Below are positions 1 to 23,480 of a stretch of DNA of 64,000 nt, one piece after another. A program made the translations under genes and the position numbers. Numbering within the stretch: position 1 is the first letter of the stretch; each line of letters begins with the position of its first letter. The DNA comes from Candidatus Fimihabitans intestinipullorum (GTDB taxonomy: Bacteria; Bacillota_I; Bacilli_A; RF39; UBA660), in the NCBI GenBank assembly GCA_018714965.1, contig DVML01000007.1, positions 74,610 to 138,609 of the forward strand, in the 5' to 3' direction. Below the pieces are notes generated by a model that worked only from the letters and a program-made list of their open reading frames with translations, made no database searches and was not told the DNA's origin.

Positions 1-16
1 AATCGAAGAAGAATAA

Positions 17-46
17 GAGGTAGAGCGATCTACCTTTTTCTTTTTT
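17..46 (+). terminator. Rho-independent terminator of a gene upstream of the window
   Basis: GGTAGA-gcga-TCTACC hairpin followed by T-runs. Confidence 0.5.
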
Positions 47-179
47 GCAAAGAGAAAACTTGATTGAAAAACAAGGAAAAAACGAAGAAAAATAAGAAAA
101 AACATTGCTTTTATGTATAAAAAATGGTATTCTTAAAATGTAAGCAAGATAGCTTAACAAAATAGGGAGGTAAACGCAG

Positions 180-2921: not shown

Positions 2922-2935
2922 AGTGACTTTTATTT

Positions 2936-3481
2936 TTATAGTTTAAAATCGTTGTATATTTCATCGTTCATATTTTTTCCATCGAAGTAAGTTCTCTCTT
3001 TAAATTTACAAATTTTAGATACGATATTTGATGGAAATGCGCGGACTAATTTATTGTAGTCAGTAATAATATCATTATAATACTTACGATAAGCGTAAAT
3101 ATCAGTTTCAGTCTCATTTAAACCAATATCGATTTTCAAGAAGCTTTCTGAATTTTTTAATTCTGGATATTCTTCTTTATACTTATTAAATTCATTGATT
3201 GCTTCGTATAATTGACGATCTAGTTCAAAGTTTGTCAACTTTCTCGAGCGAAGTTTTACGATAATCCCTAAGATATCTTTATCGATATCGGTATTGGCTT
3301 TGATAATTCCGATTGATTTATTTAAAAGATCAAATCTCTTTCTCAAAGTAGAATCGATATTTGCCTCTGCTTCGTTGATTCGAATAATACAGCTTTGAAA
3401 GCGATTAAAAATATTGATATAGCAGATCAAAATAATACAAATTACGATACATAGTACCAAAGAATACATAAATAAGTCCAT
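2936..3481 (-). CDS. LemA family membrane protein
   Basis: N-terminal TM helix, LemA-like RKRFDLLNKS and C-terminal YNDIITDYNKLVRAFPSNIV. Confidence 0.75.
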   Translation of the reverse strand: MDLFMYSLVLCIVICIILICYINIFNRFQSCIIRINEAEANIDSTLRKRFDLLNKSIGIIKANTDIDKDILGIIVKLRSRKLTNFELDRQLYEAINEFNKYKEEYPELKNSESFLKIDIGLNETETDIYAYRKYYNDIITDYNKLVRAFPSNIVSKICKFKERTYFDGKNMNDEIYNDFKL

Positions 3482-3533
3482 ATGATCACCTTATTTCATT
3501 ATAGCAGAAATAGGGAGTAAGATCAATTGTTAT

Positions 3534-3881
3534 TTATAAATTTGGAACGAATTCAGGACTGTAATTAATACGTTCTTCGAATTCTACATAATCAAGATAA
3601 ATCATTTGTAACAAGTACCATTTACCCGTTTGTGGATCACTTAAGATAAGATGATCACGACCTGATTGTTCGATGATGCCATCAAATACTTTATCACGCC
3701 ATTCAGTAGAATCGGTAAATGTCATATAGACTCGTACTTTCTTTCCTTTGTTAAGACGTAGAATGTTTTCGATATAGGATTGTTCTATATCAAAAGCTCC
3801 AGATGTTATGGCAGTAGATTGATTAGGCACCTGCATAGGTTGCCCTGGAAATGCTTGATTTGGATAAAAATTTTGATTCAC
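3534..3881 (-). CDS. gerQ: Spore coat protein GerQ-like
   Basis: Q/P-rich N-terminus, then EQSYIENILRLNKGKK...GRDHLILSDPQTGKWYLLQMIYLDYVEFEE, as remembered for Bacillus GerQ/YwdL. Confidence 0.6.
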   Translation of the reverse strand: MNQNFYPNQAFPGQPMQVPNQSTAITSGAFDIEQSYIENILRLNKGKKVRVYMTFTDSTEWRDKVFDGIIEQSGRDHLILSDPQTGKWYLLQMIYLDYVEFEERINYSPEFVPNL

Positions 3882-3955
3882 TTTATCACCTCTTACTAAA
3901 ATGTATGTATAAATTATTAAAATATGATATACTGTTGTTAATTTGGAGGAGTTAT

Positions 3956-4660
3956 ATGAAATTAGAATTAAATCATATCGAAAAAAGATTCGACGATAAG
4001 GAAGTATTAAAGGATGTTTCTTTTACGTTTGAAGAGGGGCATATTTATGGGTTATTAGGGCGTAATGGAGCAGGAAAGACAACTCTTTTTAATTGTATCA
4101 ATGAGGATTTGAAAATAGATGCAGGAGAGTTTTATATCGAAGATAATAAAGGGAAAAGAAAAATTACGTCAGATGATATTGGTTATGTATTATCTACACC
4201 AATCGTTCCGGAATTTTTAACGGGAAGAGAGTTTTTAAAGTTTTTTATCGATATCAATCGACGTCGTATGAAAGAAGAAAAGACGATTGACGAATATTTT
4301 GAACTGATGAAAATAGACGAGGAAGATCGCGATAAACTCATGAAAGACTATTCTCATGGAATGAAAAATAAAATGCAACTTTTGGTCAATATTATTGCGA
4401 ATCCTAAAATATTATTGCTTGATGAACCACTAACCTCATTTGATGTCGTTGTGGCAGAAGAGATGAAAGGGCTATTAAAACAGCTAAAACATGACCATAT
4501 TTTGATTTTTTCTACACATATTATGGAATTGGCTTTAGATTTGTGCGATGAGATCGTCATATTAAATCACGGTGTATTAGAGGAAGTTGATCGTCATAAC
4601 TTAGAAAGAAATGCACTCAAAGATAAAATTATCTCTGCTTTGAAAGGAGAAGACGAATGA
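3956..4660 (+). CDS. ABC transporter ATP-binding protein
   Basis: Walker A GRNGAGKTT, Walker B LLLDEP; start moved to the ATG behind a GGAGG RBS (track ORF begins at 3851). Confidence 0.85.
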   Translation: MKLELNHIEKRFDDKEVLKDVSFTFEEGHIYGLLGRNGAGKTTLFNCINEDLKIDAGEFYIEDNKGKRKITSDDIGYVLSTPIVPEFLTGREFLKFFIDINRRRMKEEKTIDEYFELMKIDEEDRDKLMKDYSHGMKNKMQLLVNIIANPKILLLDEPLTSFDVVVAEEMKGLLKQLKHDHILIFSTHIMELALDLCDEIVILNHGVLEEVDRHNLERNALKDKIISALKGEDE

Positions 4661-6231
4661 TAGAAACATTTCTTTTGTCATTTCACCTTAAATTGACGTA
4701 TCGAAAAAATAGTATTATCTATGCATTCCAACAATTTCCTTTTATTGGAAAATATTTTTCTAACCATTTATATGGAAATGGTGGAATAGAAGCGTTGATT
4801 AGTGTGATTAGTGCATTCATTGAATTTATTTCTATTTTCCTTGGGAAATTTCTCTATATTTCGTTAATGGTGTTTTTACCCGCTTCTTTTTACAAGGGAA
4901 ACGAAGTATCATCTTTTCTCATTATCTTATTCTTTCTTACTATTGTAGGAACATGGTTGAATACAAATATGTTTAATCCTACTAAGGATAAGTATTATGC
5001 GATTGTCTTAATGCGAATGAATGCTAAAAAAGAGGCGATTTCAGAATATGGATATTTTCTTTTAAAGATGATCATAGGTATGTATCCATTTGTGTTCTTA
5101 TTTGGCTTTCTATCACATGTGCCTTGGCATTTATGCCTACTTGCGCCCTGGATGGTAGTTGGTTTAAAAGTCATATCGACGGCTTACAATCTGAATCTTT
5201 ATAAGAAAAGAGAATTAATTGTCAATGAAAATAAGCCAACCCCTGTCATTTGGATTTTCATTATATTATTTACGGTGCTTGCTTATATCGTTCCGTTATG
5301 TAAGATACTAGGAATAGAGTGGATTATGTTTTGTTGCTATTTACTTGTCATTATTCTTGGAATTATAATGTGGAAATACATTGTAGATTTCGACGATTAT
5401 TTTACAATATATAAGAAATTATTAACACCAGATCATGTGATCTTGAATGCGAAGAATACGCAGCAAGACACGTTGAGAAAAAACGCCTTAAATGCGATCG
5501 ACAATAAAAATCTGGCGACGAGTAATAAGAAGGGATATGATTTCTTTCACGAACTCTTTATTAAACGTCATCGCAAGATCTTGACGACATCTGCACATAA
5601 TATTGCTTTAGTTGCATTTGTTGTCACTTGCATTGCAGGTTTGGTGTTGGTTCTTGTGCCGGATGCAAAAAAGCCCATAAATAGTGTGATGATGAATTTC
5701 TTGCCATATTTTCTATTTATTATGTATTTGTTAAATCGAGGAAGTACGGTAACACAAGCGATGTTTATGAACTGTGATCATAGCATGCTGACTTACCGAT
5801 TCTATCGTCAACCTAAAACTATTTTGGAGTTATTTCGAAGACGTATTGTCGATATTGTAAAAATTAATCTAGAGCCTGCTTTCGTGATTGCACTCGCACT
5901 TCCATTTTTATTGTGGTTGAGTGGTGGAACTTCGGAAAGCTTAAATTATATTGTTTTATTTGTATCGATTATTTCTATGGCAATCTTTTTTTCAGTACAT
6001 CATCTCGTCATTTATTATTTGCTTCAACCATATAACATCAATATGGAAATGAAGAGCCCTGCTTACCAAGTCGTCAATTGGTCAACTTATTTCATTTGTT
6101 ATTATATGATGGATCTTAAGATGCCAACAATGGTATTTGGGACAGTTATGATAGTGTTTGCTGTAGCGTATGTTCTTATTTCGTTGTTTTTGGCATATCG
6201 ATATGCACCGAAGACATTTCATTTAAAGTAA
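4657..6231 (+). CDS. Polytopic membrane protein, probable permease partner of the preceding ABC ATPase
   Basis: 4-nt start/stop overlap with the ATPase gene; many hydrophobic helices; no family motif recognised. Confidence 0.55.
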   Translation: MIETFLLSFHLKLTYRKNSIIYAFQQFPFIGKYFSNHLYGNGGIEALISVISAFIEFISIFLGKFLYISLMVFLPASFYKGNEVSSFLIILFFLTIVGTWLNTNMFNPTKDKYYAIVLMRMNAKKEAISEYGYFLLKMIIGMYPFVFLFGFLSHVPWHLCLLAPWMVVGLKVISTAYNLNLYKKRELIVNENKPTPVIWIFIILFTVLAYIVPLCKILGIEWIMFCCYLLVIILGIIMWKYIVDFDDYFTIYKKLLTPDHVILNAKNTQQDTLRKNALNAIDNKNLATSNKKGYDFFHELFIKRHRKILTTSAHNIALVAFVVTCIAGLVLVLVPDAKKPINSVMMNFLPYFLFIMYLLNRGSTVTQAMFMNCDHSMLTYRFYRQPKTILELFRRRIVDIVKINLEPAFVIALALPFLLWLSGGTSESLNYIVLFVSIISMAIFFSVHHLVIYYLLQPYNINMEMKSPAYQVVNWSTYFICYYMMDLKMPTMVFGTVMIVFAVAYVLISLFLAYRYAPKTFHLK

Positions 6232-11078: not shown

Positions 11079-11174
11079 ATCATTTCGCGTAGTCATCTTA
11101 GGAAGAATCACTCCAAAGAATATAATTGAGTTTATTTTAAAAATCATTTATAATAAGATTAGGACGGTGAAACT

Positions 11175-11615
11175 ATGATAGAAATTAACAACCGCAAAGC
11201 AAAATTTGATTATGAAATAGTAGATACGATAGAAGCAGGAATCGCATTAAAAGGAACAGAAATAAAATCAATCCGAAATGGAAATGCGAATTTGAAAGAT
11301 AGTTATGCGATCGTTCGAAATGGAGAAGTATTTCTTTTAAATATGTTTGTAAGTGAATATAAAGAGGGAAATCAATTTAATCACGATGAAACAAGAACGA
11401 GAAAGTTATTACTACATAAAAAGGAAATCTTAAAATTACATGATAAAATTCGCTTAGAAGGATTTACTTTAGTACCTTTGAAATTATACTTTAAAGAAAA
11501 TCATGCGAAAATTTTACTCGGTATTGCGAGAGGAAAGAAGCAATACGATAAAAGAGAAAGTATTAAAAAGCGTGATTCTATGCGTGAAGCACGTGCAGCT
11601 ATGAAGAGAAACTAA
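11175..11615 (+). CDS. smpB: SsrA-binding protein SmpB
   Basis: [10 protein letters not shown]...[14 protein letters not shown] and basic C-terminal tail. Confidence 0.95.
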
Positions 11616-11635
11616 GTAAAATCTAGGAGGTATGT

Positions 11636-13798
11636 ATGACGAATTTGGAACAAAAAATGATAATAGCTTTATTATGTGTGAATGAGGCAGTACCTGTGCA
11701 ATATTTTGAACGGATGATGACGAAAGAGGAAGTAGACACAACGATTCATGCACTCATGGAGAAAAAAATTATCCACAGATCTCATCATGGCAATGGAAAA
11801 TATCAACTGACTGCGAATGCTTCCATCGAAGGGAATGTCGTCGCGTTAGATGAAAACTATGTGATTGTTGCACCATCTGGAGATCACAATATTTTTGTTC
11901 CAAGATCCCCTTATGAGCATATTAGAATCGGAGATACCGTACTTGTAAATGCGATTTATCACTTTGATGGAAAATGTTTAGGAAAGATTCAAAAAAGAGT
12001 GATTCATCATAAAAAAAATTTAGTTGGAATTCCAATTCAAATAGAAAACGATTATTATGTCAATTACAAAGGAACTTTGTATAAGATTAATATGACACGG
12101 AAAAAGGATGATATTTTAAAGAAAGTCATTCGTTATAAACTAGTAAAAAAGAAAAGATATCAATCAACTTATGCAGAGCTGATTAAAGTGATTGGATCTC
12201 CGACGGACAAGGGAATTCAAAATAGTATCGTGTTAAATAGACTCGGAATTCACGATCACTTTCCAAAGGCAGTTCAACTAGAGGTTAAGTCTTTTCCAGA
12301 TAAAGTGACAAAGAGAGATTTGTTTGGCCGAGTCGATTGCAGAGATCATTTGGTAGTGACGATCGATGATGCGGATACAAAGGATATGGATGATGCAATT
12401 GAGGTAACGAAAACCGAGGATGGATATCGATTGATCGTACATATTGCTGATGTTGCACATTATGTGAAATATGGTTCTAAGTTATGGAAAGAAGTTTTTT
12501 ATAGGGGAACAAGTATCTACTGTTCGGATCGAGTAGAACCTATGTTGCCGGAAGAATTATCCAACCACTTGTGTTCGCTGAAAGAAGGCGTTGATCGTCT
12601 TGCGATGTCTTGTGAACTATGGTTTGATAAAAAAGGAAACGTAGTAAAAAGAGATATTTACGAAAGTGTAATTCGTTCCGAAAAAAAGATGAGTTACCAA
12701 GCTGTGAATCAAGTATTTCAAGGTAACATACCGGATGATTATCTTCCATTTGTTTCAAATTTATCAGTGATGAAGGAATTATCAGATTTGATTCGTGGGA
12801 AGATGTTGAGAGAAGGATATTTAAACTTTAACATTCCTGAGACGAGAATCACAGCAGGGAAAGAAGTGGAACCTAATATTCGTTTGCGAACTCGTTCGAT
12901 TGCCGAAGACATGATAGAAAACTTTATGATCATTGCAAATGAAGAGGTTGCGAAATACTTTGTAGAGAAGAATGCCTTAGCTATCTATCGAATTTTAGAA
13001 CGCCCAAAGATGCAAAAAGTATTAAAAATTTTAAGAGAGTTAGAACTTTCTGGCTATCGTATGAATTTAGAGGTGCCGGAAAATATAACTCCTCATTTCA
13101 TACAATCGCTTTTAAATGATATTCATACAACTAAGGATAAAATTGTTCAAGAAACGCTTGTCCATGTCATGAATCGGGCGGAGTATTCCCTGGAGGAAAT
13201 GATGCATTTTGGTATCGGTTCGATCTATACGCATTTTACATCTCCGATTCGAAGAATCAATGATTTATGTATTCATATGCTATTAAAACAGCACATTAAG
13301 CAATGGGAATTCTCAGAGTATGATGACGAAGAATTAAGAGAGATTCTTTTAAACGTGGCAACGCAAGCGACAAAGACGGAAAGGATTGCTAATGTTGTAG
13401 AACAAACGGATAAAAAGTTATGCGAGGTAGAATATATGTTGCATCATAAAGAGGAAGAGTTTAATGCACAGATTATCAATATGAATGGGCATCGAATGAT
13501 CGTGCAGTTAGAAGATAGTTTGATCGAAGGGAATGTGTTCTATAAAGATGTAAACCAAGAATGGAAGTATTTTGATCAAAAGAAAACATTAGTGAGAAAA
13601 GATGGAACAGAATTAAAAGTAGGTGACTATATCAGAGTAGTATTATCTCCTGACTGTTATGGATTATCTACCGTTGATTTAGCAATGCATCCGATAAACG
13701 GGAATATCAAACTTTTAAATTTTTCGATTATTGGTGTTGGAAAAATGGAAAAAGAAACCAAGAAATTTCTGTGTAAGAAAAATTGCCAAAATGCATAA
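11636..13798 (+). CDS. RNase II/RNase R family exoribonuclease (second paralog)
   Basis: RNB motifs TIDDADTKDMDDAI and HFTSPIRRINDL; overall architecture parallels rnr at 7519-9630. Confidence 0.8.
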   Translation: MTNLEQKMIIALLCVNEAVPVQYFERMMTKEEVDTTIHALMEKKIIHRSHHGNGKYQLTANASIEGNVVALDENYVIVAPSGDHNIFVPRSPYEHIRIGDTVLVNAIYHFDGKCLGKIQKRVIHHKKNLVGIPIQIENDYYVNYKGTLYKINMTRKKDDILKKVIRYKLVKKKRYQSTYAELIKVIGSPTDKGIQNSIVLNRLGIHDHFPKAVQLEVKSFPDKVTKRDLFGRVDCRDHLVVTIDDADTKDMDDAIEVTKTEDGYRLIVHIADVAHYVKYGSKLWKEVFYRGTSIYCSDRVEPMLPEELSNHLCSLKEGVDRLAMSCELWFDKKGNVVKRDIYESVIRSEKKMSYQAVNQVFQGNIPDDYLPFVSNLSVMKELSDLIRGKMLREGYLNFNIPETRITAGKEVEPNIRLRTRSIAEDMIENFMIIANEEVAKYFVEKNALAIYRILERPKMQKVLKILRELELSGYRMNLEVPENITPHFIQSLLNDIHTTKDKIVQETLVHVMNRAEYSLEEMMHFGIGSIYTHFTSPIRRINDLCIHMLLKQHIKQWEFSEYDDEELREILLNVATQATKTERIANVVEQTDKKLCEVEYMLHHKEEEFNAQIINMNGHRMIVQLEDSLIEGNVFYKDVNQEWKYFDQKKTLVRKDGTELKVGDYIRVVLSPDCYGLSTVDLAMHPINGNIKLLNFSIIGVGKMEKETKKFLCKKNCQNA

Positions 13799-13822
13799 AC
13801 TATGGTATAATCTAGCTTACAC

Positions 13823-14207
13823 GGGGATGTCTAGGTTTCGACGGGATTACTAGGTCTTTTGTGGCAAGTCGGAGGTACACGTTACGTACAAACAGAAAAA
13901 TAACTGGAAAAAATTTAAAAAATGTATTAGCTAACATGTTCTCTACAAAGAGTGCTGTAGCTTTCGCCTAATTTAAGGAAAGGCATACGCTTCTATTTAT
14001 TCTTTGCCTACGAGAGTATATAGGGGTTCATCAAAGTAGGATATAGCAATTTTTCGTCTAAGAAAATTGTGGAACTTTATTAGACTTACGAAAAGATAAG
14101 TTGTTGATTCCTCACATCTTTTCGGACAATGAATGAATCAACTAAACTTGTAGAAGCAGAAGGGATGGTAGTTTCGGACATCGGTTCGAGTCCGATCATC
14201 TCCACCA
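13823..14207 (+). ncRNA. ssrA: tmRNA (SsrA)
   Basis: 5' GGGGAUG pairs with 3' CAUCUCC-ACCA including G3-U; T-arm GGTTCGAGTCC. Tag frame GGA 13906 to TAA 13971 behind AUAACU encodes (A)GKNLKNVLANMFSTKSAVAFA. TGgTATAAT extended -10 at 13803-13811. Confidence 0.9.
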
Positions 14208-14218
14208 ATTTGAAAATC

Positions 14219-14247
14219 ACTTGAGCTAGACATAGTTCAAGTTTTTA
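14219..14247 (+). terminator. Rho-independent terminator after ssrA
   Basis: ACTTGAGCT-loop-AGTTCAAGT hairpin (one G-U pair) plus TTTT. Confidence 0.65.
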
Positions 14248-14356
14248 TGTGCTTTTCAGTGTCTGAAAAACTACTGAAAGAATAAAAAAGCGTTTATATT
14301 TTAGATAAATAGTTAAAAGTGATTGAATCAAAAAAGTGTTTTTTTGAAAAGTTGTG

Positions 14357-14365
14357 TGTTATAAT
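14357..14365 (+). promoter_or_regulatory. Extended -10 promoter element for the retron transcript
   Basis: TGtTATAAT located 5-6 nt upstream of the a1 repeat. Confidence 0.45.
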
Positions 14366-14370
14366 GATTT

Positions 14371-14528
14371 TGCAGTAGTGATTGGAATTATTTCCTACTT
14401 TAACGAGTCGTTAAGGGACTAGATTGATGATAACGATAAAATTGTAATATTCCAAAGGACTAACCTACACGGTGTGTAGGCGCTTCGCTTTAAGTCCATT
14501 TCCATATTACAATATCGCTAGTACTGCA
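14371..14528 (+). ncRNA. Candidate retron msr/msd non-coding RNA
   Basis: Non-coding stretch directly upstream of the RT. Flanking inverted repeats TGCAGTAGTGAT / ATCGCtagTACTGCA, two short hairpins, then a long imperfect hairpin 14441-14513. Confidence 0.6.
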
Positions 14529-14547
14529 CACAGGGGAGGTAGCAAAA

Positions 14548-15504
14548 ATGTGGAAATACATTGGCACGAAAGAATGCAATGATTTTTTGCTATCTCTTCA
14601 TTTAATTGATTGTTTGGATCAGAGAAAATACATAAAAACTATATACTCTATTAGTAATAATATTGAAAAAAATTATAAAATTTATAAAATAAAAAAGAGT
14701 AATGGTGGGTATAGAACTATATATGAGCCCAATCCTCTTTTGAAACAAATTCAAAAACGTATTTTAACTAGTATACTCAATCATAAAGCGATATCAAGAT
14801 ACGCAAAAGCGTATCATAAAGGAACTCAATTAAAGGATAATGCATTTCCTCATGTTAACAAAAATATGATGTTGAAGTTAGATATTAAAAATTTTTTTGA
14901 GACGATCACATTTTTAGATATTTATAATTCTTGTTTTTCAATAGAATATTTTCCTAAGTCAGTTGGGATGATTCTAACTTACTTATGTACGTATGATAAT
15001 CACTTGACGCAAGGATCTCCCACATCTCCTTACATATCAAATTTAGTGATGCAAGAGTTTGATGAAGAATTAGGTAGTTGGTGTGATTTAATGGGAATAT
15101 CATATACAAGATATTCAGATGATATGACTTTTTCTGGACAATTTAATCCCAGAAAAATAATATCTAAAGTTAGAAAAATGTTGTATCGTTTGGGAATGGA
15201 ATTAAATGATAGTAAGACACACGTTGTGTACAAATCATCCAGCCAAAAAGTTACTGGTGTTGTAGTGAATGAAAAAATGCAAGTGAGCAAAAGGTACCGT
15301 AATAAAATACGACAAGAAATATATTATATTAAAAAGTTTGGATTGAATTCTCATTTGAAAAAATGTAATATTGATATTAATTCAATAACATATGTAAATA
15401 TATTGTACGGGAAAATTCTTTACGTTTTACAAATTAACGAAACTGATAAGGAATTTATAAAATACAAACAATTTATCAAAGATTTAAAAGGCAATATAGG
15501 TTAG
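14548..15504 (+). CDS. Retron-type reverse transcriptase
   Basis: 318 aa; motifs YRTIYEPNPLLKQIQKRI, NAFPH (NAxxH), LTQGSPTSPYISN, YSDD, VTGVVVN; GGGGAGG RBS. Confidence 0.85.
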   Translation: MWKYIGTKECNDFLLSLHLIDCLDQRKYIKTIYSISNNIEKNYKIYKIKKSNGGYRTIYEPNPLLKQIQKRILTSILNHKAISRYAKAYHKGTQLKDNAFPHVNKNMMLKLDIKNFFETITFLDIYNSCFSIEYFPKSVGMILTYLCTYDNHLTQGSPTSPYISNLVMQEFDEELGSWCDLMGISYTRYSDDMTFSGQFNPRKIISKVRKMLYRLGMELNDSKTHVVYKSSSQKVTGVVVNEKMQVSKRYRNKIRQEIYYIKKFGLNSHLKKCNIDINSITYVNILYGKILYVLQINETDKEFIKYKQFIKDLKGNIG

Positions 15505-15516
15505 AATTGCCTTTTT
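15487..15516 (+). terminator. Hairpin overlapping the RT stop codon (weak or partial terminator)
   Basis: AAAGGCAAT-loop-ATTGCCTTT 9-bp stem followed by only a short T tract. Confidence 0.4.
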
Positions 15517-15596
15517 AGATACAAAAATTACAGACATTTGCACAATATTCTTTTTTGTAGTAGTATATATAACAATTGAAAAAGGAATAAGTTTAT

Positions 15597-16274
15597 ATGG
15601 CGACAAAACTAGAGAAAATGAAATGGAAATTACATAGAAAAAAATATGATATACTGTTTAATTATGGAGTGAAGCATGGCCTAATTAAGTCTTATGATGA
15701 TAAGTTGATAGAAAGTTTAAGACATGTTTATTACGGAGGAATTTCAGCATCTATATTATTACTACATGAAGGGTTAAGTAATGGGAATTGTTATGATAGA
15801 GGAAGCTTGATCACTTTAGGTTTTAGTGATGATGATTTTCAAGTGGTGGATGCAGATATTGATAGTTTAAGATTGAATCCTAAATATATTGATGAATATA
15901 AAGAAAGTGATGAAGGTTTTATAAACCATTGTTTTGCAGAAAGAACGTTGAAAGATGGTACGACGTGGGTATATGATACCTCGATAGGATTAGTGTTTGC
16001 AAAAGATTTATACTATAAATTGGAAAACCCTAAAATTACAAAGATTAACAACAAAAGGGCGACATTAGAATTTTTATCTTATGAGTTGGGGCATAATGTA
16101 GATTTAAATAACGACAAATATGCTTTACCTATGATATTACCATATATCGAAAAACGATTAGAACCAACACAGCAATTTTATTTAGAACAATTAAAACAAG
16201 AAATAGAGCTACTAAAAAAAGAGGTTCAGTATGATCAAGTTTGCAAAAAAGTACATGCTGGTATAAAACTATAG
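15597..16274 (+). CDS. Hypothetical protein in the retron effector position; possible transglutaminase/papain-like Cys-His-Asp fold
   Basis: 225 aa with no TM helix and no NTPase motif; GNC65YDRG ... NH111CFAE ... WVYD127TS has spacing typical of transglutaminase-like cysteine peptidases. Confidence 0.5.
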   Translation: MATKLEKMKWKLHRKKYDILFNYGVKHGLIKSYDDKLIESLRHVYYGGISASILLLHEGLSNGNCYDRGSLITLGFSDDDFQVVDADIDSLRLNPKYIDEYKESDEGFINHCFAERTLKDGTTWVYDTSIGLVFAKDLYYKLENPKITKINNKRATLEFLSYELGHNVDLNNDKYALPMILPYIEKRLEPTQQFYLEQLKQEIELLKKEVQYDQVCKKVHAGIKL

Positions 16275-16352
16275 AATCTAAGTTAATGGATAAAGGAGCA
16301 GCGAATGTTTCATTCAAAAATGTTAGCTAAAGGATTTGAAGTCTTGATTATA

Positions 16353-16381
16353 TTGACTATTGATTAGATACTAACTATAAT
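16353..16381 (+). promoter_or_regulatory. Sigma-A type promoter for the NDK-fusion gene
   Basis: TTGACT, 17-nt spacer, TATAAT, about 20 nt upstream of the RBS. Confidence 0.5.
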
Positions 16382-16403
16382 AAAAAAACGAAAGGAAGAT
16401 GCT

Positions 16404-17405
16404 ATGAAAGAACGAACTTATGCGATGTTGAAACCAGATGGAGTAAAAAAAGGGTTGTTGAAGGAAGTTATTAGAAGGTTTGAGAAAGTGGGATTAACCG
16501 TATCCCATATCAAGGAAATGGAATTAGATGCTGGAATTGTAAAGCAACACTACGCTCACTTAGTAGACAAACCATTTTATCCGACGTTAGAAGCATTCAT
16601 GTTGTCAGGGCCAGTTGTTGCGATGATCGTAGAAGGAGAATCTGCTGTAAGTAAGGTAAGAGAATTGATGGGAGCAACGGATAGCAAGGATGCTTTACCA
16701 GGAACGATTCGTGGTGATTATGGAGATAAGACGTGTTGTACTTATAATATTATTCATGGATCTGATTCTTTAGAAAATGCAGAAATTGAAATCGATCGTT
16801 TTTATCCAGAATTACAACTAAAACCATATGGTGCGGAAGAATTGAAAGTGATTTTAAATGCTGTGCGATTAGTTAAAAGATTTCATATTACAGAAAATGG
16901 TGAAATTCATTCCGCAATGGCAGAAGAATATTTGAAGTGGTTGAATCAATATGCAGTTTATTGTTCGGAAGATAAACAAGAAGCATGGAAGAAGGATACG
17001 CATGATATCGTATATCGCCCAAAAGTGATAAAACCAATCTGTGAAAGAGATATGAAAGCACAACAAATAATTGCTAATGATGATTATGGAATTATTGATG
17101 ATCTATATAATTTTATGGATGCAGGAGAAATTATGAAGACTTATCATGAGACAGAGTCATGGCAAAAAGTTTATGAGGTGTTGAAAGGTCAAGGACATAG
17201 TGGATATACGTTTAGTGGTGTTGCAAGCATCATATTGGAGTATGCTTCGTTTGGAGTAGATTTTATCGATCGATACTGTCCTGAGAGAATCAATTATGAT
17301 GAAGAATTTAAAAAAGTATATATGGGTAGGAAGAAGCGGAATGAACATGTAGAATCATCTGGTTTGGAACCATCTTATGAGCTTATGCTTCGACCTAAAA
17401 AATAG
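16404..17405 (+). CDS. ndk: Nucleoside diphosphate kinase domain fused to a roughly 190-aa C-terminal domain of unknown function
   Basis: N-terminal ~135 aa is canonical NDK (YAMLKPDGV, catalytic NIIHGSDS); the rest matches nothing I recognise. Confidence 0.8.
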   Translation: MKERTYAMLKPDGVKKGLLKEVIRRFEKVGLTVSHIKEMELDAGIVKQHYAHLVDKPFYPTLEAFMLSGPVVAMIVEGESAVSKVRELMGATDSKDALPGTIRGDYGDKTCCTYNIIHGSDSLENAEIEIDRFYPELQLKPYGAEELKVILNAVRLVKRFHITENGEIHSAMAEEYLKWLNQYAVYCSEDKQEAWKKDTHDIVYRPKVIKPICERDMKAQQIIANDDYGIIDDLYNFMDAGEIMKTYHETESWQKVYEVLKGQGHSGYTFSGVASIILEYASFGVDFIDRYCPERINYDEEFKKVYMGRKKRNEHVESSGLEPSYELMLRPKK

Positions 17406-17509
17406 TAAAGAGAGATCTTTAGTGGAGCGCTTTTGTAAATTGAAATAGATAAAAGAACAAGCCAAATATAATAGTGGATATTACAATGGCGTTTTTCTTG
17501 GAGGAACCA

Positions 17510-18184
17510 ATGCTTGAATTAGAAAAATATGTACAAAAAGAGATTAAAATTGAACGAGTTAATTTTGAATGCGTTGATTTAAAAATTGTGCAAGATTTAG
17601 TGGAGTCATTAGAAAAAATGTTGGCGCTTTATCCTGAGATAAAGCCATTCATCCATGCGATAGGGACTAGACCGTTTTTGCAAAAATGCATAGATGAAAT
17701 CGAAATAAAAATGAAAGAAGAAGCAACGTTAGAAGAGCTTACACAAATGCGACAATATTTGGTTCAAAAAGAATCTTCCAATAATCCTATGATGCTTTTT
17801 CATTCGTATATGGATCAAGGGCAACCGTGTATTATGTTTGGATTAGAACCTTATTTGGAAGATTGTACACATCAAGAGCTAATCACTACAATAAAAAACA
17901 TCAAAAAACGCAATTCTATTACAACCGTGTACAATCCAAGTGTGATCATGTACCATGAATTTGGACATTGTCTTGATTTTTTATTAAGTGTAAGTTATGA
18001 TACAGAAATATTTTGTGCGATGATGCAAAAAGGGATAGATCCAGAAAGATATTGGTATACGGGGAGTGAATTATATGCAGATGCTTTTGCAGAATATTAT
18101 GCGAATCCTAATGCAGCTCCAATTTGTAATAAAGTTGTACAATATACCAACCGACAATATCATCGTCAATTTGTAAGGAAATGA
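17510..18184 (+). CDS. Putative zinc metalloprotease, HExxH (anthrax lethal factor/ATLF-like pattern)
   Basis: YHEFGHCLDF followed ~35 aa later by SELYADAFAEYY; start placed at the ATG behind GGAGG (track ORF begins at GTG 17474). Confidence 0.5.
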   Translation: MLELEKYVQKEIKIERVNFECVDLKIVQDLVESLEKMLALYPEIKPFIHAIGTRPFLQKCIDEIEIKMKEEATLEELTQMRQYLVQKESSNNPMMLFHSYMDQGQPCIMFGLEPYLEDCTHQELITTIKNIKKRNSITTVYNPSVIMYHEFGHCLDFLLSVSYDTEIFCAMMQKGIDPERYWYTGSELYADAFAEYYANPNAAPICNKVVQYTNRQYHRQFVRK

Positions 18185-18190
18185 TAAAGA

Positions 18191-18219
18191 AATCCTAAGT
18201 GAGATCACTTAGGATTTTA
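18191..18219. terminator. Bidirectional terminator between convergent genes
   Basis: AATCCTAAGTG-agat-CACTTAGGATT 11-bp perfect stem flanked by A/T runs. Confidence 0.7.
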
Positions 18220-18234
18220 TATTACATTGAAATA

Positions 18235-19581
18235 TTATTTTTTTTTGATGTGTGGAATTTCTATCTTTTGGTTAGAAAAGTTCCAATTCATTTGATAATC
18301 TGGCAATAATTTCGTTTTAATCGGCATCATTCTTGGAATTAAAATGACAGCTTCGAAACGCTTCATCATTTTTAACTCTTCTACTGTGATGAGTGGAATA
18401 ATCATGCCATGTTCTTCTTTATTACCACACATTTTACTAATTTCTTCTAGTGTTTCAATGTTGTTAGATAATAAATAAATTATATTTCGGAATGTCAATT
18501 TAATAATTTCAGCATCTTCTTTTCCATACAAGTTAGTAAGAGCTTGTAAACTTTGAATCACGGCAGTGATTCGAATAGAAAGACCACGTGCATAACTTGC
18601 GATATTATTGAAATCAACGATCGGCATAAGTTTATCAAACTCATCTAAGATAATATTCATACCATGATTTTTGTTATTGTATAGACGGATTACTTGATAA
18701 GCTTGATCTATGAATAGTGGAATAAAGGTACTACTATATGAACTAGTACCGCTAATCATAAATACCGCTGTCTTTTCTGTGACAATTGTTTTAAAGTCAA
18801 AATCTGTGCATGCCGTCATGTTAGAAAATTGAATTCTTGAAATATATTTTTTCAATTTCTGATTAGTAACAGATAAGATACTTCCTTTTGTTTCAGGTGG
18901 GGCTAATAAAGTCCCAACTAAATTCATATAAATTGTAGAAGTATGATCTAAGCTATCCATTAACTCTTTTGCCATGCTGATGTCTGATCCTTTTTTGTTT
19001 TCTTGCAACTCACAAGAAAATGTAAAAATTTTACGGAATGTAATATTTTCTTTTTTCTCGTTTTCGAATAAATATAGTACAAGTCCAGTAAAATAATCGA
19101 TAGATGTATTTATCCAGAATGGGTCCCCTTGATAATGAGGTTCTGCAAAGATGTAGTGGGCGATATGTTCTACTAATTCGAGTGCTAGATCTTGTTTACC
19201 TGCATGGTATAAGTCGTATGGAAAAGTAAATGGATTCCAACAGTTTCCTCTTTCTAAACGATCTAAATCTAAAATGATTGTTTGATAACCGCGTTCTTTT
19301 AATTCTCCAGATACAAGTTCGTATAATTCACCTTTGCAATCATTTACGATAAGTGATTTTCCTGTTTGAATTCCAAGACGAATTTCCGGTAACATACAAG
19401 CTTGCGTTTTTCCAGATCCTTGCGAAGCAATGACAAGAGTATGTCCTGTTTCCTCATTGACGTATAGTGTGTTTCCTTCATATCCCATAGGAATACCAGA
19501 AACCGTTTTATTTTGTTCTGGAATGACCGGTGTTAGAATCTTTGCTAACTCTTCCTTGCTTGACCATCTTGCATAATGCAT
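18235..19581 (-). CDS. VirD4/TraG/TraD-like type IV coupling protein family ATPase (soluble, orphan)
   Basis: Walker A SQGSGKTQ, Walker B NIILDEFDKL, coupling-protein-like RGLSIRITAVIQSLQALTNLYG; no N-terminal TM helices. Confidence 0.65.
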   Translation of the reverse strand: MHYARWSSKEELAKILTPVIPEQNKTVSGIPMGYEGNTLYVNEETGHTLVIASQGSGKTQACMLPEIRLGIQTGKSLIVNDCKGELYELVSGELKERGYQTIILDLDRLERGNCWNPFTFPYDLYHAGKQDLALELVEHIAHYIFAEPHYQGDPFWINTSIDYFTGLVLYLFENEKKENITFRKIFTFSCELQENKKGSDISMAKELMDSLDHTSTIYMNLVGTLLAPPETKGSILSVTNQKLKKYISRIQFSNMTACTDFDFKTIVTEKTAVFMISGTSSYSSTFIPLFIDQAYQVIRLYNNKNHGMNIILDEFDKLMPIVDFNNIASYARGLSIRITAVIQSLQALTNLYGKEDAEIIKLTFRNIIYLLSNNIETLEEISKMCGNKEEHGMIIPLITVEELKMMKRFEAVILIPRMMPIKTKLLPDYQMNWNFSNQKIEIPHIKKK

Positions 19582-19676
19582 ATTTCTCCCTCCTTTCTAA
19601 CCACAGTATAACACCTCTATAAACAAAAAGTTAAACAATAATGAACTTATGGTATAATAGTGCTAGGGTGGTTTTT

Positions 19677-20138
19677 ATGTATTCTGATGAACTGGTATGT
19701 GATATGTTGAATTACATTCATGATCATTTGTATGAAACGATATCGATGGATGAATTAAGTAGACGATTTTTTTACGATAAAAGTTATCTTATGAGAAAAT
19801 TTAAAAAAGCGTTAGGAATGACAATTGGTTATTATGTCAATGCGATGCGAATTTATAATAGCTTGTCTTCTTATCAAACGGGGGATTCCGTATTAAAAAT
19901 TGCGCTATTTCATGGTTTTCACTCTATCGAATATTATAGTGAGGTGTTTCGCTCAATGATGGGAGTGAGTCCTAGAACATATAAAAAGTTTGTTCAATAT
20001 CGCTATTATGAAAATGAAGATGAATACTATAAAATGACAACAACAGTTGTCCAACTACAGTCTTTAAAGAAATTTGTATCTGATTATCAGAGTCGTAGAA
20101 AACCAGTAAAATTACCGGTCAAGAAAATTCGTTTGTAA
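19677..20138 (+). CDS. AraC family transcriptional regulator
   Basis: Two HTH_AraC units (ISMDELSRRFFYDKSYLMRKFKKALGMT; GFHSIEYYSEVFRSMMGVSPRTYKK). Confidence 0.8.
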   Translation: MYSDELVCDMLNYIHDHLYETISMDELSRRFFYDKSYLMRKFKKALGMTIGYYVNAMRIYNSLSSYQTGDSVLKIALFHGFHSIEYYSEVFRSMMGVSPRTYKKFVQYRYYENEDEYYKMTTTVVQLQSLKKFVSDYQSRRKPVKLPVKKIRL

Positions 20139-20202
20139 TGATATTATCCTATCTATTTCAGTTGGATAGTGTTATAATGATAGTAAGAATAGAGGTGGAA
20201 AA

Positions 20203-20904
20203 ATGCCTTATATAGAATTAAAAGATGTTAAAAAAGAATATCAGATGGGTGAAGTAAAAATCACCGCATTAGCAGGGGTTAATTTTTCTGTGGAAAAAGG
20301 AGAATTGGTCGTCGTGCTAGGACCATCTGGAGCAGGAAAGACGACAGTGTTAAATATTCTTGGAGGAATGGATACGTGTGATAGTGGACATATTTTAGTA
20401 GATGGGAACGATATATCCAAATACTCACGTCGTAAATTAGTAGAATATCGGCGGTTTGATATTGGGTTTGTATTTCAATTTTATAATCTAGTTCAAAATT
20501 TAACCGCTTTGGAAAATGTCGAACTTGCAAGTCAGATTTGTAAGAATCCATTAGATCCTGTAAAAGTGATGGATCAAGTTGGTTTGAAGGGAAGGTTAAA
20601 AAACTTTCCTGCGCAACTTTCAGGCGGAGAACAACAGCGAGTTGCCATTGCACGTGCTATTGCGAAGAATCCTAAATTATTATTGTGTGATGAACCGACA
20701 GGTGCATTGGACTCTAAAACAGGTAAGAAAATTTTAGAATTGTTACAAAAGACATCTCATGAAATGGGAATGACGACAATCATCATTACGCACAATGCGA
20801 TGATTGCAGAAATTGCCGATCGAGTCGTCCGTATGAAAAACGGAAAAATTATCGAGGAGACATTGAACGATCATCCATTACCAGTTTCGGAGATTGATTG
20901 GTAA
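20203..20904 (+). CDS. ABC transporter ATP-binding protein (MacB/LolD-FtsE type)
   Basis: [35 protein letters not shown]. Confidence 0.9.
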
Positions 20905-23480
20905 TGAAATTACTATACAAAGATGCAATTCTAAAAATTAAAGAGTCCTTTGGAAGGTTTTTATCAGTTTTATTAATTGTAGCGTTAGGAGTCGGTTTTT
21001 TTGCGGGACTTAGAGAAGCAACTCCTGACATGTTCTATACTTTAGATCATTATTATGACGAACATAATTTAATGGATTTTAAAATTGTAAGTACTGCGGG
21101 ACTTACTGTGGATGATGTTCGTTCTTTAAAAGAACTTGAACATGTCGAAAAAGTGGTTCCAAGTTATTCTCTCGATGCACTAGAAGAAGGAAATGCAGTA
21201 AGAGTACATTCGCTTGAAGATGATATAAATCAAGTGGAACTAATAGATGGTAGAATGCCAACAGAAAAGAATGAATGTTTAGCTGACAACAAACATTACA
21301 AAGTGGGAGATACCATCACATTAGATTCAGAAAATGTGGGAAATCAATTAGAAGAGATAGAATATCGTGTAGTAGGTACAGTAGATTCTGTTTTATATGT
21401 AGGAGTTGAAAAAGGAATTTCTACGGTTGGAAATGGAAAATTAAATTCGTTTCTATTTGTACCAAAAGAAAACTTTAAAACACCATACTATACGGAAGTA
21501 TATTTAACTGCGAAAAATACAAAAGAGAAGGAATCTTATTCCAAGGCATACGAGGAAGAGAGAGAATATTTAAATCAAGAACTTTTAGAATTAAAACCGA
21601 TTCGTGAGACAAAACGATATGAAGAGTTAAAAGAACAAGCAGCAAGTCAGATCCTGCTATTAGAACAGTCAATCGCTTCGCAAAGACAAAAAATAACGGA
21701 AATGACACAATATGGTATTCGACCATCCCAAGCAGAAAGAGAGATTTGGAATCAACAAATTCAATTGATGGAAGAACAAGTAACACTAGCAAAACAAGAG
21801 CTAGAAACATTGCCGAAACCGGAGTGGTATCTACTAGACAGAACGGATCAAACAGGATATACTGCGCTTCGTGATGATATAAACAAAGTAGATGCGATCG
21901 CACAAGTTTTTCCGGTATTTTTTATACTTGTTGCAGCATTGATGTGCTTTAATACAATGACGCGTATGATCGAAGAAGAGAGGACGCAAATCGGAATTTT
22001 ATCTTCTCTCGGATACAGTCGTTTAAAAATTATTCACAGTTATATTTTCTATGTCTTAATTGCAACGATTTTAGGAGTTACGATTGGACTATTGGTAGGA
22101 TATACGACGATTCCAAATATTATTTACAATATTTATCACACGAATTATATTTTGCCTGATTTAATTGTGCAGGTAAAATGGGGACCATTTGCTCTGATCG
22201 TTGGAATTACTATTTTACTAATGTGTGTTGTAACGATATTTGCGGTTATGAAAGAATTGAGCGAAAAACCAGCGGTTTTACTTAGACCGAAAGCACCTAA
22301 GATGGGAAAGAAGGTATTATTAGAACGCGTTCCAATTTTATGGAAACACTTTACCTTTACATGGAAGGTTACGAGTAGAAATATCTTTCGTTATAAAAAA
22401 CGTGTATTTATGACGATCATTGGTATTTTAGGATGTACAGCATTACTTTTAACTGGTTTTGGTCTTAGAGATGACATCAATAGATTAGGTGACTTACAAT
22501 ATGGAGAATTGATTCACTATGATGCGATTGTTGGTTTAAAAACTCCGGCGACAACGATAGAGCCAGAATTGCACCAAGTATTAGAAACATCGAAAGTAGA
22601 AAAGACGATCCCATTATATCAAGAGACTATGAAGTTCTACGCAGGAGAAGAAAATCATGATGTATACATGATGGCGATGCCAAGTGATAGAGATATTTCT
22701 GATTTTATTACACTTCGATCACAAGATGATCAAAAGAAGGTAGAACTTAAAGATGATGGCGTCGTTATCACGGAGAAGATGGCACAACTATTGGGAGCGG
22801 AAAAAGATGGATTTATTAAGGTTCGCAACAGTCAAAATGAATTATTTGTGCTGCATGTAACAGATATCGTTGAAAATTATACTATGCATTACATTTATAT
22901 GAATGAAGTATATTACAGAGAAATTTTTGGATCTGATATGGAGTACAATGTCATTATGATAAAGGGCTTAGATGTAAAGGAAGATGCGTTTGCGCAAGAT
23001 TTGATCAATAGTGGAACGGTTACTTCTGTCAACTTTACAAGTGACAATACAGCGCTTTTCGATCGGATGGTAGATGGTCTCAATCAGATTATATACTTGA
23101 TTATTATTGCGGCCTCAATGCTTGCATTTGTCGTATTATACAATTTGACTGCGATTAATATCATGGAGAGAATGAGAGAGATTGCAACGTTGAAAGTACT
23201 TGGTTTTTACGACAAAGAGGTGTCAAGTTATGTATATCGAGAGACGTTCTTATTGACAGTGCTTGGAAGTTTCATTGGACTTATAGTTGGAATTGCGCTG
23301 CACCGATATGTGATGCTAGTTGCGGAGACAGATGATATTATGTTTTTGAAACAGATCGAGCCACTTAGTTATCTTTACGCTTTTGTGATTACGATACTGT
23401 TAAGTGCAGTCATTCAAATATTTACGTATTTTAAATTGAAAAAAATCGATATGATCTCATCTTTGAAGTCAGTAGAATAA
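20898..23480 (+). CDS. FtsX-like ABC transporter permease with duplicated FtsX domains
   Basis: 860 aa; overlaps the ATPase gene; two 4-TM FtsX-type modules each preceded by a large extracytoplasmic domain. Confidence 0.8.
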   Translation: MVMKLLYKDAILKIKESFGRFLSVLLIVALGVGFFAGLREATPDMFYTLDHYYDEHNLMDFKIVSTAGLTVDDVRSLKELEHVEKVVPSYSLDALEEGNAVRVHSLEDDINQVELIDGRMPTEKNECLADNKHYKVGDTITLDSENVGNQLEEIEYRVVGTVDSVLYVGVEKGISTVGNGKLNSFLFVPKENFKTPYYTEVYLTAKNTKEKESYSKAYEEEREYLNQELLELKPIRETKRYEELKEQAASQILLLEQSIASQRQKITEMTQYGIRPSQAEREIWNQQIQLMEEQVTLAKQELETLPKPEWYLLDRTDQTGYTALRDDINKVDAIAQVFPVFFILVAALMCFNTMTRMIEEERTQIGILSSLGYSRLKIIHSYIFYVLIATILGVTIGLLVGYTTIPNIIYNIYHTNYILPDLIVQVKWGPFALIVGITILLMCVVTIFAVMKELSEKPAVLLRPKAPKMGKKVLLERVPILWKHFTFTWKVTSRNIFRYKKRVFMTIIGILGCTALLLTGFGLRDDINRLGDLQYGELIHYDAIVGLKTPATTIEPELHQVLETSKVEKTIPLYQETMKFYAGEENHDVYMMAMPSDRDISDFITLRSQDDQKKVELKDDGVVITEKMAQLLGAEKDGFIKVRNSQNELFVLHVTDIVENYTMHYIYMNEVYYREIFGSDMEYNVIMIKGLDVKEDAFAQDLINSGTVTSVNFTSDNTALFDRMVDGLNQIIYLIIIAASMLAFVVLYNLTAINIMERMREIATLKVLGFYDKEVSSYVYRETFLLTVLGSFIGLIVGIALHRYVMLVAETDDIMFLKQIEPLSYLYAFVITILLSAVIQIFTYFKLKKIDMISSLKSVE

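Follow-up and report, generated by a model that had tools for sequence, protein, structure and literature searches.

The window, that is, the whole stretch of DNA analysed here, is 64,000 nucleotides long and comes from Candidatus Fimihabitans intestinipullorum (contig DVML01000007.1); positions are given in its numbering unless the handle of another locus precedes them. The gene under study is located at positions 15597-16274 of the plus strand and codes for a protein of 225 residues, predicted to be a cytoplasmic papain/transglutaminase-like Cys-His-Asp enzyme of an unnamed family. Its translation contains the three motifs GNC65YDRG, NH111CFAER and WVYD127TS. The corresponding codons, all on the plus strand, are TGT at 15789-15791 (Cys65, putative nucleophile), CAT at 15927-15929 (His111, putative general base) and GAT at 15975-15977 (Asp127, putative third member of the triad). 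A transmembrane segment is absent from the protein (maximum Kyte-Doolittle 19-mer of 0.93), as are the P-loop and HExxH motifs that were looked for. A pattern of the type C-(35..60)-H-(12..25)-D is present in 65% of shuffles of this protein; the spacing alone is thus uninformative and the support for the triad comes from its conservation and from the predicted structure.

Upstream of this gene, smpB (11175-11615) and an RNase R-like gene (11636-13798) precede the tmRNA gene ssrA (13823-14207, plus strand), which was detected by ARAGORN and by the Rfam family RF00023 (164 bits). The terminator scan placed the intrinsic terminator of the tmRNA at 14219-14242 (plus strand). Two RNB-domain (RNase R/II-like) paralogs sharing 33% identity are found on either side of smpB in the related locus L001 (660-2771 and 3308-5470), the second being the equivalent of the window gene 11636-13798.

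A retron block of 1,269 bp (14254-15522, plus strand) begins 47 bp after the tmRNA (14207-14254) and consists of one non-coding RNA, a reverse transcriptase (RT) gene and a terminator. The extended -10 box of the non-coding RNA (TGTTATAAT, 14357-14365, plus strand) is the point where the homology to other retron modules starts in the alignment A3. The non-coding RNA (msr-msd, about 14371-14528, plus strand) is closed by an a1/a2 stem and further displays a pair of small hairpins and a long msd stem, with a folding energy of -43.7 kcal/mol (z = -2.9), and is near-identical in the loci L053, L057, L058 and L065. The RT (14548-15504, plus strand) was assigned by PADLOC to RT_Ec107-like (3.4e-125, the runner-up being RT_III-A) and by Pfam to RVT_1, and the motifs NAFPH, VTG and YSDD were read from its translation. 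A hairpin (AAAGGCAAT...ATTGCCTTT) followed by a T-run (15487-15516, plus strand) overlaps the RT stop codon and is likely the RT terminator. With a retron-type RT preceded by a structured RNA that bears an a1/a2 stem, the element is, judging from its sequence, an ordinary orphan Ec107-like retron.

The 225-residue gene has the same orientation as the RT and starts 92 nt downstream of the RT stop codon. In between, we find a putative promoter of its own, TTGCAC-17-TAGTAT (15538-15566, plus strand), made of the hexamers TTGCAC (15538-15543) and TAGTAT (15561-15566). This promoter is weak by consensus, and the consensus scanner lists neither it nor the hairpin 15487-15516: the loop of the hairpin is longer than 8 nt, and TTGCAC agrees with the consensus at only 3 of 6 positions. 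A previous sequence-only reading had described the open reading frame, the three motifs, the position of the Cys codon, the hairpin and the two hexamers; re-reading of the sequence found all of them in place, and the hydropathy profile and motif check bore out its statement that transmembrane segment and P-loop are lacking.

Downstream, a gene at 16404-17405 (plus strand) codes for a nucleoside-diphosphate kinase (NDK) domain (residues 1-136), to which a C-terminal part of about 195 residues without any family match is fused; it has a strong promoter match of its own (16353-16381) and is kept in the retron-less relative. The next gene (17474-18184, plus strand) codes for a protein of 236 residues with the sequence HEFGH (HExxH) and a faint match to Peptidase_M91 (E 0.14), which may represent an uncharacterised zinc metallopeptidase. 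It is followed by a lone gene for a TraG/VirD4-like type IV coupling protein (18235-19581, minus strand), whose ortholog in L001 displays the domains T4SS-DNA_transf, TrwB_AAD_bind and TraG-D_C. As no other conjugation genes are found nearby, this gene may be the remnant of an element integrated near ssrA.

Conservation and neighbourhood of the family

At 90% identity, the family of the 225-residue protein forms about 95 clusters, and at 50% identity it has 346 representatives. Almost without exception, the members are about 230 residues long and stem from metagenome-assembled genomes of gut Bacilli/'Tenericutes'. The alignment of the 47 closer relatives (A1) reveals that Cys65 is invariant and that His111, Glu115 and Asp127 are each conserved in at least 90% of sequences. 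From the alignment of 89 diverse relatives (A2), we observe that Cys65 is conserved in 77 sequences, His111 in 81, Glu115 in 68 and Asp127 in all 89, so that the conservation of the triad, which had been proposed as a check on the initial reading, holds to a large extent. The Cys is missing from 12 members of A2 (about 13%), and 7 of these 12 also lack the His. Such a joint loss is as expected of a functional dyad.

Homologs were checked at 47 loci, 39 of them from genomes of different GTDB species. The annotated surroundings are heterogeneous and mostly housekeeping (ScpAB and thioredoxin; MutS and UvrC; PolA with Fpg and pyruvate kinase; adenylosuccinate synthetase), and housekeeping neighbours were also found at three loci beyond the 47. 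Clustering of the neighbours in 40 loci brings out only two recurrent kinds, paralogs from the family itself and, in five loci, serine recombinases; these 40 loci contain no conserved operon partner that would give a clue to the substrate. An association with thioredoxin, suggested by L004 and L006, did not generalise across loci.

In 15 of the 40 loci, a tandem paralog is located immediately 3' of the family gene. It is either a second copy of the family or a member of the divergent cluster c1 (Cys71, His104 and Asp119), which is related to the family at an hhalign probability of 97.5% (E 5.9e-12). The loci concerned are L015 (5914-7412); L027, L028, L033, L036 and L046; and L010-L014, L017, L018, L022 and L031. 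Both copies usually retain the triad. In L046, the first copy is without Cys and His and the second has both, and the sequence P0095 looks like a chimera of the family and c1. Neither a second family copy nor a c1 paralog was found in the window. In L010-L013, L015 and L061, which contain the closest non-orthologous relatives (72-73% identity), the homolog comes straight after a serine recombinase gene, which suggests that some members of the family travel at the edge of integrative elements.

This position behind recombinases and the frequency of tandem paralogs give some weight to an alternative in which the family would be a conflict module borne by mobile elements (toxin, defence or anti-defence) and independent of retrons. 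The window gene abuts the 3' end of the tmRNA, a classic island site, with the orphan TraG/VirD4-like gene 2 kb away, and several of the weak fold matches described below are toxins (CdiA-CT 8ssm, 9l5u), both of which are in line with such a module. However, many of the loci are plainly housekeeping, PADLOC gives no match for the 225-residue protein, no direct repeat of the tmRNA 3' end marks the bounds of an island in the window, no recurrent immunity-like partner was seen, and the usual retention of the triad by both tandem copies also argues against it. We regard a conflict module as unlikely, although first among the alternatives, and retain the reading of the gene as a resident gene coding for an enzyme.

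Predicted fold and comparison with named enzymes

The AlphaFold2 model of the full 225 residues has a pLDDT of 91 and a pTM of 0.87. In this model, Cys65 is the first residue of the helix 65-75, His111 is included in the strand 110-117 and Asp127 ends the consecutive strand 123-127; the core is flanked by a helix on its N-terminal side and by a helical bundle on its C-terminal side. When the core was predicted alone (residues 28-156; pLDDT 89.8), Cys65 was again the first residue of its helix. The model thus displays two characteristics of the papain/transglutaminase-like fold, namely a nucleophilic Cys at the N-terminus of an alpha-helix and the His and Asp on consecutive strands of an antiparallel sheet.

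Searches of the PDB with Foldseek, using the full-length and core models, detected no significant match (best E 0.047, TM at most 0.44). Re-prediction of the core raised the TMq to about 0.4, with E-values still above 0.04. The top-50 lists of both models contain mostly papain-like enzymes, none of them significant: NTAQ1, CtaG, Josephin clippases, a papain-like toxin, C39 peptidase domains and phytochelatin synthase. The search against the viral BFVD models was uninformative. No match to the 225-residue protein was found by scans of Pfam, NCBIfam and PADLOC, nor in the PDB sequences by phmmer and family-profile searches, including among transglutaminase-like chains. Among the relatives, Tox-PLDMTX (papain-like fold), Transglut_core (best 0.0028) and Acetyltransf_2 are some of the commonest Pfam matches below the threshold. 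The papain/transglutaminase-type Cys-His-Asp arrangement first read from the sequence is therefore moderately borne out by the conserved triad and its placement on helix and strands, and is not matched by a significant fold hit (E of 0.047 or above). The fold class is probably papain/transglutaminase-like, with no significant match to a named family, and the enzymatic nature of the protein is moderately supported.

The best-probability Foldseek neighbour (up to 0.80) is NTAQ1 (PDB 3c9q, 4w79 and 8jj*; triad Cys28-His81-Asp97), with a TMq of 0.37-0.44 to the core, i.e. below 0.5. Both proteins have the Cys at the start of a helix and a spacing of 16 from His to Asp, and FIYDLD in NTAQ1 resembles WVYDTS. 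In contrast, the spacing from Cys to His is 46 in the 225-residue protein and 53 in NTAQ1, and the former also has an extra helix at its N-terminus and, at its C-terminus, a bundle of helices of about 70 residues. NTAQ1 is known as a eukaryotic family, whereas the relatives of the 225-residue protein come from gut Bacilli. The hhalign comparison of A2 with the single human NTAQ1 sequence, which had been checked against PDB 3c9q, aligned 29 columns at E 0.06 and a probability of 0.9%, with His facing His and Asp facing Asp. This comparison gave no significant sequence or profile homology to NTAQ1 (Nt_Gln_amidase).

The transglutaminase-like superfamily (PF01841 Transglut_core; papain-like peptidase clan) reportedly has the signature G-x-C, H-x-[FWY]-x-E and W-x-x-D-T, and the order of the motifs in the 225-residue protein fits it. 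The context H-x-F-x-E and W-x-x-D is conserved in the relatives. The gathering threshold of PF01841 was not reached: the query has no match even at E up to 10, and the matches of relatives, found in 2 of 89 (best E 0.0028), are below the gathering threshold.

By E-value, the top full-length Foldseek match is CtaG of closthioamide biosynthesis (PDB 9qu*/9qv*; E 0.16). CtaG is a papain-like ligase with the triad C11, H128 and D144, and illustrates that the fold is able to form amide bonds and not only to cleave them (PMC12865890). The His-to-Asp spacing of 16 is common to both proteins. However, a TM of 0.13-0.17 and an rmsd of about 18 A over the full alignment indicate no real global similarity, and no carrier-protein or biosynthetic genes are located near the 225-residue gene.

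The lack of a significant match to characterised enzymes in Pfam, the PDB and Foldseek would also agree with a protein in which the Cys, His and Asp are structural and which acts in binding or as a scaffold. Such a pseudoenzyme could be reconciled with the relatives that are devoid of the Cys (about 13%), as the fold tolerates its loss, and with the chance occurrence of the C-H-D spacing in shuffled sequences. It is less compatible with the model, where the Cys at a helix N-terminus and the His and Asp on neighbouring strands are arranged as for catalysis in this fold, with the tendency of Cys and His to go missing together and with the conserved context of the motifs. This alternative seems to us rather improbable, and the 225-residue protein is considered below as a candidate enzyme.

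The retron block, its empty site and its relatives

In GCA_902493485.1 and CALEBF010000014 (loci L001 and L009), which represent a sister lineage, the gene codes for a protein 97% identical to the 225-residue protein. The order at both loci is smpB, RNase R, tmRNA, 225-residue gene, NDK fusion, a gene for 224 residues and TraG, without any RT; the tmRNA is here the resident upstream neighbour of the gene. With blastn, the window segments 11131-14253 and 15523-22000 align at 92-93% nucleotide identity to adjacent L001 positions (5925/5927). The two flanks abut in L001, and the segment 14254-15522 (1,269 bp) is therefore the only difference. It contains exactly the non-coding RNA, the RT and the hairpin. 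The tmRNA terminator is identical in L001, i.e. kept at the retron-less site, and the right edge of the block (15522) falls between the RT hairpin and the promoter-like region of the 225-residue gene, which is retained at the empty site. The retron-plus and retron-less copies of this gene have a dN/dS of 0.14, indicating purifying selection. From this comparison, the block appears to be an insertion of an orphan retron; we infer this polarity, and formally the relative could have lost the block. At the edges of the block, a search for target-site duplications and terminal repeats brought up only AT-rich noise.

With the RT as tblastn query, none of the 47 loci (0/47) gave an RT within 6 kb of its homolog. 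Conversely, the contigs with a 100%-identical RT all have the 225-residue gene downstream, but they correspond to one locus of one lineage. The nearest other RTs have about 81% amino acid identity, and their module, 83% identical in nucleotides to window 14355-15512, spans from the TGnTATAAT -10 box (blastn start 14355) to just past the RT stop. It is found in three settings: directly behind a gene for a 288-residue AAA_15/AAA_21-type ATPase, in elements that also carry a relaxase, TnpV and a large serine recombinase; after that ATPase again, in a different chromosomal context; and alone, between an IS3 transposase and tRNA-Gly/ffh. No homolog of the 225-residue gene lies beside the module in any of these three settings.

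Both orphan copies of the non-coding RNA and RT, in the window and in L065 (5957-6195), neighbour the 3' end of a tRNA-like gene; about 160 bp separate the RT stop of L065 from the 3' end of tRNA-Gly(gcc) beyond it. Neither an integrase nor repeats were detected near these two copies.

The 288-residue ATPase (AAA_15/AAA_21/SMC_N-type) consistently precedes the close relatives of the RT (L053-L060, about 2926-4960; L066/L067, 3926-5960), with its stop codon about 10 nt before the -10 box of the non-coding RNA. The pairing occurs in at least two flanking contexts unrelated to each other, Tn4451-like mobilizable transposons among them. In PADLOC, the matches of this protein are confined to generic ATPases (mad3, PtuA, AriA, ATPase-Toprim_I-B), and in the window the search for it returned only generic similarity to ABC ATPases. 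Judging by this recurrent order of genes, the Ec107-like 'orphan' branch may have in it a partner not described before. The branch of Ec107 (Retron-Eco5) has been described as one of orphan retrons with no dedicated partner protein (Mestre et al. 2020). The block resembles Retron-Eco5 by its RT (3.4e-125 to the PADLOC model) and by a size of about 1.3 kb for non-coding RNA and RT only. It differs by its host, a low-GC gut member of the Mycoplasmatota/Bacilli, and by the ATPase often found upstream of its close relatives. This likeness concerns the neighbouring element and not the 225-residue gene.

The protein could also be taken as a member of an unannotated, lineage-restricted Cys-His-Asp family that might be a new conflict system or, less likely, was co-opted by the orphan retron. 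In the co-opted variant, the less likely of the two, the 225-residue protein would stand in, either in cis or in trans, for the missing ATPase partner of the Ec107-like retron. This view as a whole appears distinctly improbable to us.

The sequence-only reading had taken the 225-residue protein for a possible effector gated by the retron, which corresponds to a tripartite retron where the protein would be restrained by the RT-msDNA and freed on phage infection; although the gene follows a genuine retron immediately, on the same strand and 92 nt past the RT stop, has a plausible catalytic triad and adjoins every identical RT found, this role is very improbable in view of the one lineage and one locus from which the identical RTs come, the intact gene under purifying selection at the retron-less site, the 0/47 loci with an RT, the pairing of the nearest RT relatives with an ATPase or nothing beside unrelated genes (ffh, relaxase), the terminator hairpin, block edge and conserved promoter region between RT and gene, and the orphan status of the Ec107 branch. 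Adjacency to a retron RT or non-coding RNA conserved across genomes, as expected of an accessory protein, was not observed, nor a linked presence and absence, the sister lineage having the gene without non-coding RNA or RT. The occurrence of the gene without RT neighbours elsewhere, which that reading had named as evidence against itself, was found both in the sister lineage and at the 47 loci. The role of effector is thus not supported; the comparison of loci points instead to a resident gene beside which a bare retron (non-coding RNA and RT) happened to land.

Status of the gene and proposed activity

The explanation that we prefer, and consider probable, is that of a resident gene of a gut Mycoplasmatota/Bacilli lineage, apparently transcribed on its own and coding for a soluble cytoplasmic enzyme of the papain/transglutaminase-like type, to which the neighbouring retron is unrelated. 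It is founded on the collinearity with the retron-less relative, the absence of RT beside the homologs, the conservation of the triad and the location of its residues on the predicted secondary structure. The 1.27-kb Ec107-like block of non-coding RNA and RT would have entered between the tmRNA terminator and the promoter region of the gene.

For the activity, the thiolate of Cys65 at the helix N-terminus would be activated by His111, itself oriented by Asp127. The thiolate would then attack the carbonyl of an amide, a peptide or a thioester, leading to an acyl-enzyme that could be hydrolysed or transferred. The protein would accordingly act in the cytoplasm as an amidohydrolase, a peptidase or an acyl-transferase. 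It probably represents a new addition, as yet unnamed, to a fold superfamily that is already known.

The adjacency of a gene to a retron RT is insufficient to call it an effector, and here one retron-less sister genome and a reciprocal check of the contexts overturn such a call. This bears on the automated annotation of defence systems, especially in the Ec107-like 'orphan' branch. For the retron clade of the window RT, the conserved 288-residue ATPase may be the true partner and constitutes a lead. A second lead is the family itself, an unnamed group of probable papain/transglutaminase-like enzymes in poorly studied gut Bacilli with small genomes.
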